Shown piece by piece: positions 13,109-26,155 of a stretch of DNA of 64,000 bases. A program made the translations under genes and the position numbers. Where the stretch lies: contig JAHBZH010000001.1 of NCBI GenBank assembly GCA_019635535.1, positions 1,018,995-1,082,994 on the forward strand, given 5' to 3'. Source of the DNA: Sphingomonas sp. Its GTDB lineage: Bacteria; Pseudomonadota; Alphaproteobacteria; Sphingomonadales; Sphingomonadaceae. The notes beneath the pieces are model-generated. The model made no database searches. It worked only from the letters and a program-made list of their open reading frames with translations, and was not told the DNA's origin. Each line of letters begins with the position of its first letter. The first letter of the stretch is position 1.

Positions 13109-14146
13109 ATGCCCGTCGATGCCTCGCAGGCGCTTTTGTGTTGGTATGCTGTGGATAAGCGACGCCTGCCCTGGCGCGCCGAACCCGGCGATACGCCCGA
13201 TCCCTATCGGGTCTGGCTGTCCGAGATCATGCTCCAGCAGACCACGGTCGCGGCGGTGAAGCCTTATTTCGAACGGTTCACGACGCGCTGGCCCAGTGTC
13301 GTGGCGCTGGCCGCCGAGGAGGACGACGAGGTCATGCGGGCCTGGGCGGGGCTCGGCTACTATGCCCGCGCGCGCAACCTGCTCGCCTGCGCCCGCGCGA
13401 TCGTCGCCGATCATGGCGGGCGTTTCCCCAACGATGAGGCTGCGCTGCTCAACCTGCCCGGCATCGGCCCCTATACCGCCGCCGCGATCGTGGCGATCGC
13501 CTTCGGGCGGCGCGCGGTCGCGGTGGACGGCAATGTCGAGCGGGTGGTGGCGCGGCTGTTCACGGTGGCTGAGCCGCTGCCCGGCGCGCGCGCGCATATC
13601 AGGGCGCTGGCTGACAGCCTCGTGCCGGACGAAGGCGCGGGCGATTTCGCGCAGGCGATGATGGATCTGGGCTCGGCGATCTGCACCCCGCGCAATCCCG
13701 ATTGCCCGCATTGCCCGCTGCAAAGCTATTGCGCGGCGGCGCGGACGGGCGATCCGACGCGCTGGCCGATGAAGGCGCCGAAGGCCGCCAAGCCGAAGCG
13801 CGACGGCCTGGCCTATTGGCTGGAGCATGACGGCGCGGTGCGGCTGGTGCGCCGGCCCGGCAAGGGGCTGCTCGGCGGGATGTTCGCCTTGCCCGAAGCG
13901 CCGCCTATGCCGGCCGACTGGTGCGAGGCCGGGTCGGTTGACCATGTCTTCACCCATTTCGCGCTCAACATGAAGCTGCTGTGCGCGCGGGCCGAACGTC
14001 GCGACGACGGGCTGTGGTGGCCGGTCGAGAGGATCGGCGAAGCAGGCCTGCCCACTTTGTTCGCCAAGCTGGCCGCCCGGGGCGTTGCGTGGCGGGAAAG
14101 CGGGCAGCCGGCCCGGCGTGGGAGAATGAAGGAGACCGTATCTTGA
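13109..14146 (+). CDS. mutY: A/G-specific adenine glycosylase
   Basis: LPWR, SEIMLQQT, GLGYYARARNL, HhH LPGIGPYTA, VDGNV, CTPRNPDCPHCPLQSYC Fe-S motif. Confidence 0.93.
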   Translation: MPVDASQALLCWYAVDKRRLPWRAEPGDTPDPYRVWLSEIMLQQTTVAAVKPYFERFTTRWPSVVALAAEEDDEVMRAWAGLGYYARARNLLACARAIVADHGGRFPNDEAALLNLPGIGPYTAAAIVAIAFGRRAVAVDGNVERVVARLFTVAEPLPGARAHIRALADSLVPDEGAGDFAQAMMDLGSAICTPRNPDCPHCPLQSYCAAARTGDPTRWPMKAPKAAKPKRDGLAYWLEHDGAVRLVRRPGKGLLGGMFALPEAPPMPADWCEAGSVDHVFTHFALNMKLLCARAERRDDGLWWPVERIGEAGLPTLFAKLAARGVAWRESGQPARRGRMKETVS

Positions 14147-22094: not shown

Positions 22095-22727
22095 TCACTC
22101 GGCGGCGGGCGCGGCCGCGTTGGCTTCGGCCGGCGCGGCCTCATTGCCCTCCGCGGGTGCCGCTTCGTTGCCCGCTTCGGCCGCCGGCTCCTCGACCGCG
22201 GGCGGCGGCGGGAGCTGCAGATTGCCCCCCTGCTGGTTCATGTAGAGCAGCAGGTCGGCGCGTTCCTGCGGATTGGACAGGCCTGCGAAGGTCATCCGGG
22301 TGCCCGGCGCGAAGGTGCGGGGTGAGGCCAGCCAGGCGCTCATCGTGTCCCAGTCCCAGGTGCCGCCGCGCGAGCGCAGCGCATCCGAGAAATTGAAGCC
22401 GGCATGACCGGTACCGACGGCCTCGCCCATCACGCCGTAGAGATTCGGGCCGAGGCCGTTGGCACCGCCCTGGTTGATCGTGTGGCAGGCGGCGCACTTG
22501 CGGAAGGCGCCTTCGCCGCGGGCCGCATCGGCGGTCTGCAGGAAGTGGGCGATCGGCGGCTCCGCGTCGGCGGCGCCGGACGATTCTTCCTCCACGCCCT
22601 CGATCGGATAGCCCATCGTTTCGGGGCGTTCCGACTTGAAGACCTGCCCGGTGACCAGCGTGCTGCCCAACAGGACGATGCCCGCGCCCAGCACCCATCC
22701 CGCAATCGTGTTGAACCGATCGTCCAT
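22095..22727 (-). CDS. Membrane-anchored cytochrome c (CycM/c2-like)
   Basis: N-terminal TM helix, CAACH, GPNL, PGTRMTFAGL. Confidence 0.92.
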   Translation of the reverse strand: MDDRFNTIAGWVLGAGIVLLGSTLVTGQVFKSERPETMGYPIEGVEEESSGAADAEPPIAHFLQTADAARGEGAFRKCAACHTINQGGANGLGPNLYGVMGEAVGTGHAGFNFSDALRSRGGTWDWDTMSAWLASPRTFAPGTRMTFAGLSNPQERADLLLYMNQQGGNLQLPPPPAVEEPAAEAGNEAAPAEGNEAAPAEANAAAPAAE

Positions 22728-22857
22728 GCCGCTTTCTTGCCTCCGAAGGTGCGCGGCCTCCCCTGGCCGGCTTCAAGCTGATTGGCGCCCCCTTTATGCG
22801 GGCGCGGCGCGCGCCGCAAGCCGGGCACGCACCTAAGGCGAAAGCGGGCCGGCGCAC

Positions 22858-22925
22858 TTATTCCCGTTATCCTCATTATCCACAGGCGGAATCCGTTTGG
22901 TGCGACTCACTTTTCATGACAGCCT
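22858..22925 (+). promoter_or_regulatory. Promoter module of large element 1
   Basis: Tandem TTATTCCCG-TTATCCTCA-TTATCCACA (22858-22884); GANTC at 22889 and 22904; TTGGTG-N17-CAGCCT. Confidence 0.55.
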
Positions 22926-22930
22926 TCCTT

Positions 22931-23664
22931 CCGTGGCAGAGACGATCGACCGGCAACGGACGAGAGCCTTCCCAGCCACGGCCCGAGCGAGGAGCCCTTG
23001 CGTCCCACCAGACGAAAGGTCCGAGCGGAGGCGGGGCGGCTGACGAAGCCGCCGCCAGGCGGAAGCTGCGGACTTGTCCTTTGGCGGATGCGAAAGCGGC
23101 AGGCTTCGTGAAGCGCCCAACCGGAACCGGAGGCCTTCGGGCGGACGGGACCGGGCAGGCAGGAAGAGAATCCTTCGGGGTTCGCGAACTGCCCGGTGGA
23201 AAGCGGGATCTTCGGATTTACGCACCGCCACCGGCGAGAAGGGAGGTTTCGGCCGAACGGATTGTCGGGCAGGACCGGGCCTGGTTCCCGGGAGCTGCGA
23301 AACCGGCGAGAGCCCAGGGCTTCGGCTCATGGCTCGCCAGGCGGAACCAGCGGCTTCGGCCAAGGATCCCGCCGGCTCCGGCACCAAGGCTTCGGCGGCG
23401 GTGACGGGAAGGCGGGAAGCGGAACGCGAGTTCCAAATCCGCCAAGCGGCGAACCGCCAGGGCTTCGGCCCTGACGGGGAGCCTGCGGGGAAACCCGAAC
23501 GAAGCTCACGCTTCGGGAAGGGACTCCGGGAACCGAAGCCAAGGCCCCCGGCCTGGTCAGGTTTCGAAATCGCCCTCGCGGACTGCCTCGCCTCCCAGGC
23601 TTGGTGTTCACCCGCGGCGGGACAGTGGGGGCCGGCGGCAACGCCGGCCCCCATTGCTGTTTCG
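22931..23664 (+). ncRNA. Candidate large structured ncRNA, copy 1 (about 730 nt); family not recognised
   Basis: About 9 UUCG-loop hairpins plus GAAA/GCAA loops on the + strand; ends shared with 25243-25692; own terminator; start inferred. Confidence 0.65.
23624..23664 (+). terminator. Terminator of large element 1
   Basis: TGGGGGCCGGCG-GCAA-CGCCGGCCCCCA then TTGCTGTTTC. Confidence 0.7.
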
Positions 23665-23716
23665 GCCTTGGCGCCGCCCGGCGCGCCCGATCGGCCCTGC
23701 TGCGGTTTCCCCCTGC

Positions 23717-23745
23717 TTGATCTGGCGCAAGACAGGCGCGATAGT
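23717..23745 (+). promoter_or_regulatory. Putative sigma70 promoter of the bactofilin gene
   Basis: TTGATC-N17-GATAGT upstream of RBS GAGGAGG. Confidence 0.4.
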
Positions 23746-23769
23746 CCCCGCCAAGCGAGGAGGGGCCAC

Positions 23770-24264
23770 ATGTTCTCACGCAAGGATTCGAAGCCCGGCA
23801 CGCGGTCCGGCCGATCGTCGTCGTCCGGTCTGTCCTTCATCGGGCCGGAGGTGGTGATCAGCGGCGATCTGACCACCAGCGCACAGCTCCATGTCGACGG
23901 GCGCATCGACGGCCATGTCCGTTGCGGCCAGCTTTGCCAGGGCGAAAGCGGAATCATCGCCGGCGATCTCACCGCCGACGAGGCGCGAATCGCGGGCCTG
24001 ATCGAAGGCACGGTCAACGCCGCGACGCTGGTCGTCGAGGCGACCGGGCGGATTGCCGGCGACGTGACCTACGAGACGATCAGCATCGCCGCCGGCGCGC
24101 GGATCGACGGCCGGCTCGCCCGGCGCGCGGCGCTGGCGGCCGGGCCGGGTGCCGACGACGTGCTGATCGCGACGCCCACCACGCCCGCCGGCAAGGGCAA
24201 GGCCGCCAGCAGCACCGACCTCTTCCCCGCCGGCAGCAAGCCCGAGGCGCTGGTGGTCGATTGA
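23770..24264 (+). CDS. Bactofilin (polymer-forming cytoskeletal protein)
   Basis: SFIG...ISGDL...LHVDGRIDGHV...GE.G.I.G.L.A....IAG.IEG.V beta-helix pattern; strong RBS before ATG 23770. Confidence 0.88.
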   Translation: MFSRKDSKPGTRSGRSSSSGLSFIGPEVVISGDLTTSAQLHVDGRIDGHVRCGQLCQGESGIIAGDLTADEARIAGLIEGTVNAATLVVEATGRIAGDVTYETISIAAGARIDGRLARRAALAAGPGADDVLIATPTTPAGKGKAASSTDLFPAGSKPEALVVD

Positions 24265-24728
24265 TGGCCAAGCATGTCGCGACGATCGACTGGTCTTCGG
24301 ACGGCCAATTCGCCAGCGGGCGCTACAGCCGGCGTCACGAATGGCGCTTCGACGGCGGCGCCGTGGTGCCGGGCTCCGCGTCGCCCGACGTGGTGCGTGT
24401 GCCCTTTTCCGATCCCGCCGCAGTCGATCCGGAGGAGGCCCTGGTCGCCGCAGCCTCGTCCTGCCACATGCTCGCCTTCCTGTGGGTCGCGCACAAGGCG
24501 GGGTTCGAGGTGGCGAGCTATCGCGACGATGCGGAAGGCACGATGAGCGAGGTCGCGCCGGGGCGCCTGGGCATGACCCGGATCGTGCTGCGGCCCCGGA
24601 TCGTCTTCGCGGGACGCGCGCCGGCCGGCGAGGAGCTGGACCGCCTCCACCACGACGCGCACGAGCAGTGTTTCATCGCCAATTCGATCAAGAGCGAGAT
24701 CGTCATCGAAGTCCCCGCCGAAGCTTGA
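24264..24728 (+). CDS. OsmC family protein
   Basis: YSRRHEW, DPEEALVAAASSCHML, CFIANS. Confidence 0.88.
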   Translation: MAKHVATIDWSSDGQFASGRYSRRHEWRFDGGAVVPGSASPDVVRVPFSDPAAVDPEEALVAAASSCHMLAFLWVAHKAGFEVASYRDDAEGTMSEVAPGRLGMTRIVLRPRIVFAGRAPAGEELDRLHHDAHEQCFIANSIKSEIVIEVPAEA

Positions 24729-24729
24729 G

Positions 24730-25128
24730 CTAAAGGCCCCACCAGGGCAGCTTGGCGTAATAGCCCGTCACGTCCTCATAATCGCGCGGTTGCGGCCGGT
24801 CGGCCTGGTCGAGCCGCATGGTCGGCGCCACTTCGAGTTGCTCGCGGGTGAGATCGATGGCATAGGCGTCGAGATCGACATCGTAGGTCAGCACTTCCCA
24901 CGGCACCGGATGGGCCTTTTCGCTCAGCCCGAGAAAACCGCCGAAGCTCAGCACCGCATAGGCGACCTGGCCGCTGCTTTTGTCGATCATTACCGAATGG
25001 ATCGCCCCGAGCCGCTCCCCAGCGCGATTGTAGACCGGCGTGCCCTCGACGCGCCGTGACGAGATCAGCGCGTTCCGCCGATCGAGCGCCTCGCTTTCGT
25101 TGAGCAGGGGCCGCGCATCCTGAGACAT
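24730..25128 (-). CDS. PRC-barrel domain protein
   Basis: LISSRRVEGTPVYN, IDKSSGQVAYAVLSFGGFLG, PVPW; RBS AAGGAG before ATG 25128. Confidence 0.88.
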   Translation of the reverse strand: MSQDARPLLNESEALDRRNALISSRRVEGTPVYNRAGERLGAIHSVMIDKSSGQVAYAVLSFGGFLGLSEKAHPVPWEVLTYDVDLDAYAIDLTREQLEVAPTMRLDQADRPQPRDYEDVTGYYAKLPWWGL

Positions 25129-25242
25129 GGTCCGTCTCCTTTCCGCCCCCGGAGCGATCGAATATAGCAGGATCGACCGGCGAAAGCACGCTTTCCCGGC
25201 GGGCGCTATGGCGCAGGCGGATGTCTGGAGAGGCTCGATACC

Positions 25243-25283
25243 GCTCAAAGCAATGGGGGCCGACGTCGCCGCCGGCCCCCACT
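25243..25283 (-). terminator. Terminator of large element 2
   Basis: On -: TGGGGGCCGGCG-GCGA-CGTCGGCCCCCA then TTGCTTTG; 33/35 identical to 23624-23658. Confidence 0.7.
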
Positions 25284-25692
25284 TCGCCCGAATCCAAATC
25301 CCGCGCCGGTGAGGGCTTGGGCTCGTCCCGGGAGAGGTTCCGGCCGAGGCCTCGCGGCCCCGGTCGGTCCCTTGGGTTCCATCTGAACGGTCTTGCGACC
25401 TTCGTCCGGTTCCCTGACCTGAAATGTCCCGAAGCATTGCTGCCTCGTCGCCTTTCAGATCGAGATCAGATCTCGGCCGAAGCTTCGACATGATCCCTTC
25501 GCGTTCCTTCCGTCCGAAGACTTCCGGTTCACCGGAGCAGCTGGAAAAGTGGGTTCGGCTTTCGCCTCGCGCTTCTTTCCGCTTCCCCGTCCAGCGCTTC
25601 TTCAGCTTTCTTCCTTGCGGAATTCCGCCATTTCCACCCTGGTCGCTTTCAGCCCTGCTCGTCCGTTGCCGGCCGATCATTCCTGACCGCGA
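25243..25692 (-). ncRNA. Candidate large structured ncRNA, copy 2 (about 450 nt); paralogue of copy 1
   Basis: GNRA and UUCG hairpins on the - strand; shared 5' motif, promoter module and terminator. Confidence 0.65.
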
Positions 25693-25698
25693 AGTTGC

Positions 25699-25777
25699 AG
25701 GCTGACTCGGTTTCCCGAGTCGCGCCAAGCGGAATCTTGCGTATCCTGCCTGTGGATAACGGGGATATCGTGGATAA
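25699..25777 (-). promoter_or_regulatory. Promoter module of large element 2
   Basis: On -: TTATCCACG-ATATCCCCG-TTATCCACA (25777-25751); GANTC at 25704, 25717, 25732; TTGGCG-N18-CAGCCT. Confidence 0.55.
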
Positions 25778-25780
25778 GAT

Positions 25781-26155
25781 TCAAGGGGCGGGCTTGGCGC
25801 CACCGTCGCCAACCGGCGGGGCGTTGCCGCCCGGCACCATGGCCGCGGCCCCCGGGACGATCTCGCGGATGCACTGCATCGTCGCGTCCTGAGCGCCGGA
25901 GCGGGAGACATCGTCGCCTTCGTTCATCAGGTCGCGGGCGCTCTTGCCCGTCATGTGCCGGTCGACGGCACATTCGCAGATCCGCTGGAAGTCAACGCCG
26001 GCGGGCGCGGCTGCGGCCCGTGAGCCCTGGACGCAGCCCTCAACCGCCTTCTCGCGATAGGATTCGCGGAAGCTGTTGTCGAACGCGCTGCCCGGGCCGC
26101 AAGCTGCGAGCAGAACGATGACGGAAACGGAGCCGATGCCGATTGCGAGACGCAT
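25781..26155 (-). CDS. Hypothetical lipoprotein with additional Cys residues
   Basis: Lipobox LAAC; C...CEC...C pattern. Confidence 0.65.
   Translation of the reverse strand: MRLAIGIGSVSVIVLLAACGPGSAFDNSFRESYREKAVEGCVQGSRAAAAPAGVDFQRICECAVDRHMTGKSARDLMNEGDDVSRSGAQDATMQCIREIVPGAAAMVPGGNAPPVGDGGAKPAP

Follow-up and report, generated by a model that had tools for sequence, protein, structure and literature searches.

Evidence for an undescribed Sphingomonadaceae family of structured noncoding RNAs with putative DnaA- and GcrA-type sites at their promoters

We analyzed a 64,000-nucleotide (nt) stretch of a Sphingomonas sp. genome (contig JAHBZH010000001.1, positions 1,018,995 to 1,082,994; referred to here as the window, in whose coordinates positions are given unless they carry the prefix C1 or the name of another locus), focusing on an element of about 450 nt on its minus strand that we call copy 2. 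An initial annotation, made from the letters of the window, had described this element as the shorter of two RNA paralogues, the longer of which, copy 1, lies close by on the plus strand. Our analysis indicates that copy 2 is, with high probability, a gene in its own right whose product is an extensively folded noncoding RNA. There is also strong comparative support for its membership in an undescribed and uncatalogued RNA family of the Sphingomonadaceae that has no entry in Rfam. The members of this family combine a promoter module containing DnaA boxes, a noncoding interior rich in tetraloop hairpins, and a 14-bp, GNRA-capped 3' hairpin, and all three are present in copy 2.

Coding status and strand asymmetry of copy 2

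The copy 2 stretch is noncoding, because its G+C content is flat across the codon phases (.61/.64/.64, compared with ~.65/.45/.87 in neighboring genes), its translation lacks apparent domains, and its orthologues carry numerous frame-breaking indels, i.e., indels that are not multiples of three. An open reading frame (ORF) of 393 codons (24730-25911, minus strand) does span the whole of copy 2, in phase with the PRC-barrel gene that follows it, and its translation over this part is rich in Arg, Gly, and Ser, with no apparent domain or motif.

The folding signal of copy 2 is carried by the sense strand, with a minimum free energy (MFE) of -208.7 kcal/mol (z = -3.97) compared with -177.4 kcal/mol (z = -1.86) for the antisense strand. 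Stem-closed GNRA or UUCG tetraloops give the same picture, numbering nine on the sense strand and none on the antisense strand; in 500 dinucleotide shuffles of copy 2, their number averaged 1.9 and never exceeded 6. For copy 1, the corresponding numbers are 14 sense and 5 antisense. The seven hairpins listed for copy 2 by the initial annotation (TTCC-GCAA-GGAA, GGC-GAAA-GCC, GTC-TTCG-GAC, GC-TTCG-GC, GCA-GCAA-TGC, GGTC-GCAA-GACC, and GGCC-GCGA-GGCC) were all located on the minus strand. The hairpins of copy 2 are rod-like and contain symmetric, purine-rich internal loops, e.g., GGAA/GGAA, AA/AA, and GA/AA.

Conservation of the RNA structure

The hairpins of copy 2 have clearly been kept through compensatory changes, and selection thus acts on the RNA. 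Our comparison is based on a MAFFT alignment (A2) of 27 orthologues of the copy-2 type, which come from Allosphingosinicella and closely related bacteria, for which RNAalifold predicted 59 base pairs, 27 of them with compensatory change. Projecting the MFE structure of copy 2 on this alignment left 76.4% of the cells paired and 76 pairs changed on both sides, compared with 31-51% and 26-39, respectively, when the 3' partners were slid, and none of 500 shuffles reached these values. The best helices, which pair in at least 96% of the cells, are those of the 5' hairpin, those around the core loop, that of the 3' domain hairpin (25371-25336), and that of the terminal hairpin with its 14-bp stem. 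Orthologous hairpins were also seen to exchange GNRA and UUCG loops as well as whole stems, an example being the GGC-GGAA-stem-loop-stem-GGAA-GCC element near the 5' end.

Starting from the 5' end, the first hairpin (helix 6) is paired in 100% of the sequences, with a compensatory change from CG to UA in four of them, and its loop, GCAA in copy 2, is GAAA in most orthologues. The core module follows the layout G-AAGCGYGA-GGC[variable apical hairpin]GCC-GAHCCCA-CUUUYC (loop span, 25575-25546), and helices 13 and 14, which flank its internal loop, show compensatory changes and pair in 99-100% of the cells. This module occurs in all Allosphingosinicella-type copy-2 orthologues, whereas neither copy 1 nor the RNAs of other genera have it; in the Sphingomicrobium/Sphingomonas subgroup, the invariant blocks differ from the copy-2-type ones. 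The 3' domain hairpin (helix 27) is 99% paired across the 27 sequences, with compensatory change at four pairs, and shows 90% identity across species by BLAST. The terminal 3' hairpin (helix 30) is 100% paired, with compensatory change at 8 of its 14 pairs. The stem is followed by AUUUCGUUUU in most orthologues as opposed to AUUGCUUUG in copy 2, whose U-poor tail past the hairpin reads GCUUUGAGC up to position 25243.

Comparison of the two copies

Copy 1 and copy 2 resemble each other only in their promoters and in the hairpins at their 5' and 3' ends; the interiors differ. The 21-nt 5' motif shared by the two copies has one mismatch between them and is found at no third place in the 2.75-Mb genome, even when three mismatches are allowed. 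The 32-nt core of the 3' hairpin has two differences, one that turns the loop from GCAA to GCGA and one that turns a stem pair from G-C to G-U; this core is confined to the same two loci even with five mismatches allowed, with a BLAST identity of 94% over 35 nt. Both shared ends had been proposed by the initial annotation, as had the retention of a GNRA loop and of the stem pair in the 3' hairpin, and our comparison agrees with it on these points. Since the shared ends are confined to two loci, they do not represent a promoter or terminator of a generic, dispersed kind, the finding that would have undone the proposal.

A copy count with a covariance model had been suggested as a check, and our model of the 3' end, R1, gives exactly two copies in this genome, with 61.7 bits for copy 1 and 61.5 bits for copy 2. 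The next matches are the antisense strand of copy 1 (28 bits) and then a 24-bit match. The short words GGTGGAAA and GGGAAGCGGAA, also put forward as shared, do occur in the two copies; the alignment of orthologues shows no conservation of either word, and both may have arisen by chance. A dispersed repeat or mobile element is ruled out by the presence of two copies only and by a search of the copy 2 sequence against plasmids and phages, which gave no match.

Distribution of the RNA family

Scanning one genome per species with a double-box promoter pattern returned more than 120 loci, nearly all of them in Sphingomonadaceae. At 84 of 120 loci, the promoter module is followed 340-1550 nt later by the same 3' hairpin; these loci come from Sphingomonas, Sphingomicrobium, Allosphingosinicella, Sphingosinicella, Sandarakinorhabdus, Hephaestia, and Chakrabartia. 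The interior between the fixed ends consists of 300-1500 nt of hairpins. Over 107 family elements, stem-closed tetraloops averaged 8.7 on the sense strand and 0.8 on the antisense strand, and the sense strand prevailed in 106. The initial annotation had read the pair as a modular family in which the ends are fixed, the internal hairpins vary in number, and tetraloop polarity follows the orientation of the element. The cross-genome comparison bears out the modular design, and the polarity follows the predicted transcript strand in the same 106 of 107 elements. Its picture of two paralogues holds for this genome; the family is, however, far wider, extending over many genera of the Sphingomonadaceae.

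With model R1, 118 of 151 sampled family genomes gave a match at an E value of ≤1e-3, and about 47 of 151 scored at least 45 bits (count taken from the hit list). The best score among 298 other alphaproteobacterial genomes was 41 bits, and the matches there are ordinary terminators behind coding genes, without DnaA boxes. For this reason, we set the cutoff for family membership at ≥45 bits, scores below ~43 bits not being specific. On this basis (R1 scores of at least 45 bits and 298 other alphaproteobacterial genomes searched), we treat the family as confined to the Sphingomonadaceae. The exact double-box 18-mer does occur in 10 of ~298 other alphaproteobacterial genomes. Two of these outside loci were read closely; one has densely clustered DnaA boxes and may be an origin, and the other lies upstream of a ribonucleotide-reductase-like gene; at the remaining ones, no tetraloop-rich, strand-asymmetric signature was seen. 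Within the family, the pattern scan found members in the culture collection strains Sphingomonas sediminicola DSM 18106, S. elodea ATCC 31461, S. yantingensis DSM 27244, and Sphingosinicella soli DSM 17328.

No family of Rfam 15 (4227 models, including MISL RF03079, OLE, ROOL, GOLLD, raiA, 6S, RNase P, and tmRNA) matches the RNA, even at an E value of ≤10. The gathering-level matches in the window are one tRNA and the serC leader only, and with permissive filters, the best matches overlapping 22700-25900 reach 15-21 bits compared with thresholds of 36-70. In the literature, we found neither a description of this Sphingomonadaceae RNA nor a link between DnaA boxes and a large noncoding RNA.

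Promoter region and putative regulatory sites

A putative sigma-70-type promoter precedes copy 2 (Table 1). In the orthologue alignments, TTGG.G of the -35 element and CA of the -10 element are conserved, and the conserved TTGGCG, 18-nt spacer, and CAGCCT place the predicted transcription start near 25693, in agreement with the start coordinate given by the initial annotation. The spacer contains CGA.TCG, invariant in 27 of 27 orthologues, and CGAMTCG is present at 74 of 84 family loci, although its final G lay outside the search pattern. The complement of the copy 2 site fits the GcrA consensus YGAKTCG for methylated GANTC sites (PMC5887438), and the genome carries gcrA (PF07750 match at C1:1318271-1318876, 146 bits). 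Farther upstream lie three abutting, head-to-tail DnaA-box-like 9-mers that are conserved in orthologues, one of them perfect and the others with one and three mismatches.

Perfect TTATCCACA boxes occur eight times in the genome, two of them at the RNA promoters, and the triple array is exclusive to these two promoters. Of the 20 family members that lack the triple array, which belong to other genera, 16 still carry DnaA boxes at a distance of 400-800 nt from the 3' hairpin, on its upstream side. These boxes often form an inverted pair that abuts the -35 element and is followed by GANTC; at loci L170, L172-L175, and L177-L180, such a pair, TTATCCACA ... GTGGATAA, takes the place of the three head-to-tail boxes. 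Boxes with at most one mismatch are found about once per 22 kb in this genome, corresponding to a chance of ~2% per 500-nt window. Because the boxes are retained while their arrangement changes, the DnaA link of the RNA promoter is likely functional.

Three further observations concern the boxes themselves. The base after the perfect box is G in seven of the eight cases (TTATCCACAG). Two other perfect boxes, at C1:2688661 and C1:2745730, precede ORFs that we identified by eye as DnaB-like and as MraZ-RsmH of the cell-division cluster, and another, at window position 13150, lies at the start of a MutY-like ORF. In an unrelated alphaproteobacterium, the same abutting double box, TTATCCCCGCTATCCACAG, at L155:1498-1520 stands before an ORF that reads by eye as ribonucleotide reductase. 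The nrd genes are a classic DnaA target, and this position supports a reading of TTATCCCCGCTATCCACAG-type motifs as DnaA sites.

The genome has a broad GC-skew minimum. In the Sphingomonadaceae, the origin is marked by hemE (PMC4741004), which is found here at 604 kb, compared with 1.042 Mb for the RNA loci and 2.055 Mb for dnaA. Just upstream of hemE, C1:603034-603900 contains the degenerate boxes TGATCCAGA, TTTTCCACA, CGATCCACA, and TGATCCCCA together with an AT-rich stretch of 100 nt, and this cluster is the probable oriC. An origin-linked RNA is ruled out by the distance of ~440 kb between the RNA loci and the presumed origin.

Table 1. Features of copy 2, its promoter region, and the copy 1 locus (window coordinates)
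Feature	Position	Strand	Details
Copy 2, predicted transcript	25243..25693	-	~450 nt; predicted start 6-7 nt past the -10 element; end, U-containing tail after the 3' hairpin
Three abutting DnaA-box-like 9-mers	25751..25777	-	TTATCCACG, ATATCCCCG, TTATCCACA; last one a perfect consensus
GATTC, a GANTC (CcrM-type) site	25732..25736	-	Just upstream of the -35 element; GANTC there in most orthologues
Putative sigma-70-type promoter	25699..25728	-	-35 element TTGGCG, 25728-25723; 18-nt spacer; -10 element CAGCCT, 25704-25699
CGACTCG in spacer	25722-25716	-	Complement CGAGTCG fits GcrA consensus YGAKTCG
Further GAGTC	25708-25704	-	Sequence
5' motif shared with copy 1	25658..25678	-	GATCG(A/G)CCGGCAACGGACGAG; contains hairpin CCG-GNRA-CGG; copy 1 counterpart, 22944-22964 (+)
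Copy-2-type core module	25533..25589	-	Two helices around an invariant internal loop
Core block GAAGCGCGAGG	25575-25565	-	Invariant in 27 orthologues
Core block CCGAACCCACUUU	25558-25546	-	Invariant in 27 orthologues
3' domain hairpin	25336..25371	-	GG-GA-CCG-A-CCGGGGCC-GCGA-GGCCUCGG-C-CGG-AA-CC; 2x2 purine internal loop, GNRA cap
Small hairpin	25305..25316	-	GCC-CUCACC-GGC; hexaloop conserved; alignment pairs 662-664/671-673 paired in 23-26 of 27 sequences
Family-wide 3' hairpin, presumed intrinsic terminator	25252..25283	-	AGUGGGGGCCGGCG-GCGA-CGUCGGCCCCCAUU; 14-bp stem; copy 1 counterpart, 23624-23655 (+)
Copy 1, longer paralogue	22858..23664	+	DnaA-box triple, 22858-22884; predicted transcript, ~22931-23664; 3' hairpin, 23624-23655
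Copy-1-type arrangement	22858-24264		Cytochrome c, RNA, bactofilin; also loci L018, L021, L022, L023, and L031

Neighborhood of copy 1

Within the genus, the order of a divergent cytochrome c gene, the RNA, and a bactofilin gene is kept in six of seven copy-1-type loci, and the length of the copy-1-type RNA ranges from 371 to 1087 nt. Across the family, a bactofilin gene is nearby in 7 of 120 loci. A functional tie of the copy-1-type RNA to the bactofilin gene is possible.

Proposed role and alternative explanations

Taken as a whole, the observations are best explained, in our view and with moderate confidence, by a stand-alone gene for a stable, structured noncoding RNA of ~450 nt that belongs to the undescribed Sphingomonadaceae family, is controlled by DnaA and GcrA, and acts in trans. 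Transcription would begin near 25693 from the sigma-70-type promoter, under the control of DnaA bound to the three abutting boxes at about -50 to -85 and of GcrA bound to the CcrM-methylated CGACTCG in the spacer. Control by these two proteins would confine synthesis of the RNA to a set period of the cell cycle, close to the onset of S phase. In the most speculative step, the RNA would act in trans as a protein-binding or scaffold RNA, with the invariant loop AAGCGYGA / GAHCCCA and the conserved 3' hairpin as the surfaces that a protein or a second RNA would recognize.

A number of points weigh against this account. A generic TTGACA/TATAAT scan called no promoter at copy 2, so the promoter assignment derives from conservation only, and a generic terminator scan did not call the 3' hairpin, whose U tract is weak. 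Because of this weak U tract, read-through from copy 2 into the PRC-barrel gene may be possible. In the middle region, which aligns poorly, several of the predicted helices are paired in fewer than 50% of the cells, which is partly due to the fact that MAFFT, with which the alignments were made, aligns without regard to structure. Lastly, the invariance of the loops would be explained equally well by RNA-RNA contacts or by motifs of tertiary structure.

An invariant loop would also be expected if the RNA acted by base pairing, with CCGAACCCACUUU serving as a seed for mRNAs and Hfq perhaps binding to the 3' hairpin. The invariance of the internal-loop sequence in the 27 orthologues and the presence of an Hfq gene in the genome (by tblastn) fit this idea, which we nevertheless consider unlikely: the rest of the genome contains no complement of at least 11 nt to the invariant loop, complementary 10-mers fall within coding regions at chance level, a length of 450-1500 nt with dense structure is atypical of seed-type small RNAs, and other genera keep the family ends without the invariant loop. 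The tblastn search with Escherichia coli Hfq matched two adjacent segments at C1:1917270-1917722 (minus strand), which suggests a gene with a tandem or duplicated Hfq domain.

The neighborhood of copy 2 bears on the idea that it is a long cis-acting leader of the PRC-barrel gene, its 3' hairpin being a conditional terminator at which read-through sets expression. This gene is on the same strand, 115 nt downstream, and a leader would agree with the weak U tract and with the position that copy 1 holds before the bactofilin gene across the genus. Only one of the 120 pattern-scan loci (L075, the G021 contig) has a PRC-barrel gene downstream, however, and within the genus this neighbor is found only in the present genome and its closest relative, G021. 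Since the downstream gene is not conserved across the family, we concluded that copy 2 is an independent gene and not the leader of the PRC-barrel gene. No alternative pairing that competes with the terminator was found; the candidate antiterminator, a pairing of CCCACU with AGUGGG of the 5' arm of the terminator, was rejected, given that species with AGUGGA keep CCCAC and leave the pairing uncompensated. The PRC-barrel gene also has a candidate promoter of its own, seen by eye as GGAAA-N16-CGAT at 25172-25196 (minus strand), between the 3' hairpin of copy 2 and the start codon at 25128. We take this element to resemble GGAAC-N16-17-CGTT, the EcfG-type general-stress promoter of Alphaproteobacteria, whose regulon typically includes PRC-barrel genes. 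A leader function is thus improbable.

We find it very doubtful that the DNA itself is the functional unit, i.e., that the box cluster titrates or recycles DnaA in the manner of datA or DARS and that the transcript is a by-product or a modulator of box occupancy. The exclusivity of the three abutting boxes to the two RNA loci and the retention of boxes across genera in different arrangements would be in line with such a role. It is weakened by leaving the RNA covariation unexplained: a by-product would not keep the compensatory changes, the swaps between GNRA and UUCG loops, and the strand polarity that point to selection at the RNA level. The RNA loci are, moreover, away from oriC (1,042 kb, versus 604 kb for hemE). 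Finally, we give practically no credence to copy 2 being protein coding as part of the 393-codon frame that stays open across it and runs into the PRC-barrel gene, in view of its lack of third-position G+C bias, the lack of an apparent domain in its product, the indels described above, the start of the conserved PRC domain at its own ribosome-binding site and ATG (25128), and the long open frames that are expected in DNA of 68% G+C.

Implications

Copy 2 and its relatives could represent one lineage-specific form of a wider, unrecognized class of large hairpin-chain RNAs that are wired to DnaA, with GcrA/CcrM as an added input in the Sphingomonadaceae. We offer this only tentatively; such RNAs might be cell-cycle-phased ribonucleoprotein scaffolds or self-assembling RNA particles that signal the start of replication or exert feedback on it. 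Only a small number of large structured RNAs are known from bacteria, hardly any of them from Alphaproteobacteria. The DnaA boxes and the GcrA-type methylation site predict RNA synthesis that is phased with the cell cycle, and should the DnaA link recur in other phyla, control of large RNAs by the replication initiator could be a general, overlooked layer of cell-cycle control in bacteria. The gain and loss of hairpins between fixed ends also provide a model of how long RNAs may grow. Because the family occurs in cultivable strains, its function is directly testable.

Comparison with known systems

The presumed Rho-independent terminator at the 3' end, the many hairpins, and the variable number of modules of copy 2 and its relatives are reminiscent of CsrB/RsmZ, as is the proposed multivalent protein binding. 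Their predicted loops, in contrast, are GNRA or UUCG and do not contain GGA. A tblastn search with E. coli CsrA found no CsrA homologue in the genome, with matches only at E values of ≥0.5. Given both the missing CsrA and the loops without GGA, a CsrA-type sponge is unlikely, and we ruled out this candidate.

With 6S RNA, copy 2 would share the properties of a stable, stand-alone RNA that has a promoter and a presumed terminator of its own and might likewise bind a component of the transcription machinery; the size and the central-bubble architecture of 6S RNA are not shared. The genome has a candidate 6S RNA elsewhere, a full-length RF00013 match at C1:1961049-1961205 (plus strand) that scores 45.6 bits against a gathering score of 46.4, which is probably genuine and missed at the default threshold. 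RNase P RNA is likewise encoded at another locus (RF00010, C1:1577040-1577406, 295 bits). The positions of these two matches rule out copy 2 as the 6S or RNase P RNA of this genome.

The MISL RNA of Verrucomicrobiota (RF03079) is, like the present family, a long RNA of many stem-loops in a row. It comes from another phylum, and RF03079 gave no match at an E value of ≤10, so homology is not supported. CcnA of Caulobacter crescentus is reportedly a short RNA, located at the replication origin and activated by CtrA, that base-pairs with the ctrA and gcrA mRNAs. As in our proposal for copy 2, CcnA is an alphaproteobacterial noncoding RNA whose transcription is wired to cell-cycle master regulators (PMC8959179). 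The copy 2 family differs from it in its length of at least 450 nt, its distance of ~440 kb from the presumed origin, its DnaA- and GcrA-type sites, and the fact that no target complementarity was found.

Further parallels are OLE, ROOL, GOLLD, and the raiA-motif RNA, which are orphan large structured bacterial noncoding RNAs (PMC12286853, PMC10861870). As with these, the members of the present family are several hundred nucleotides long and stand alone, with covarying helices, invariant loop blocks, and a lineage-restricted distribution. Their Rfam models show no match in sequence or structure to our family, and the tie of its promoter to DnaA and GcrA sites is a link that we did not find for those RNAs in the literature. 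In place of a fixed multi-junction fold, the Sphingomonadaceae RNAs have a variable chain of rod-like hairpins, whose length spans a range of about five-fold.

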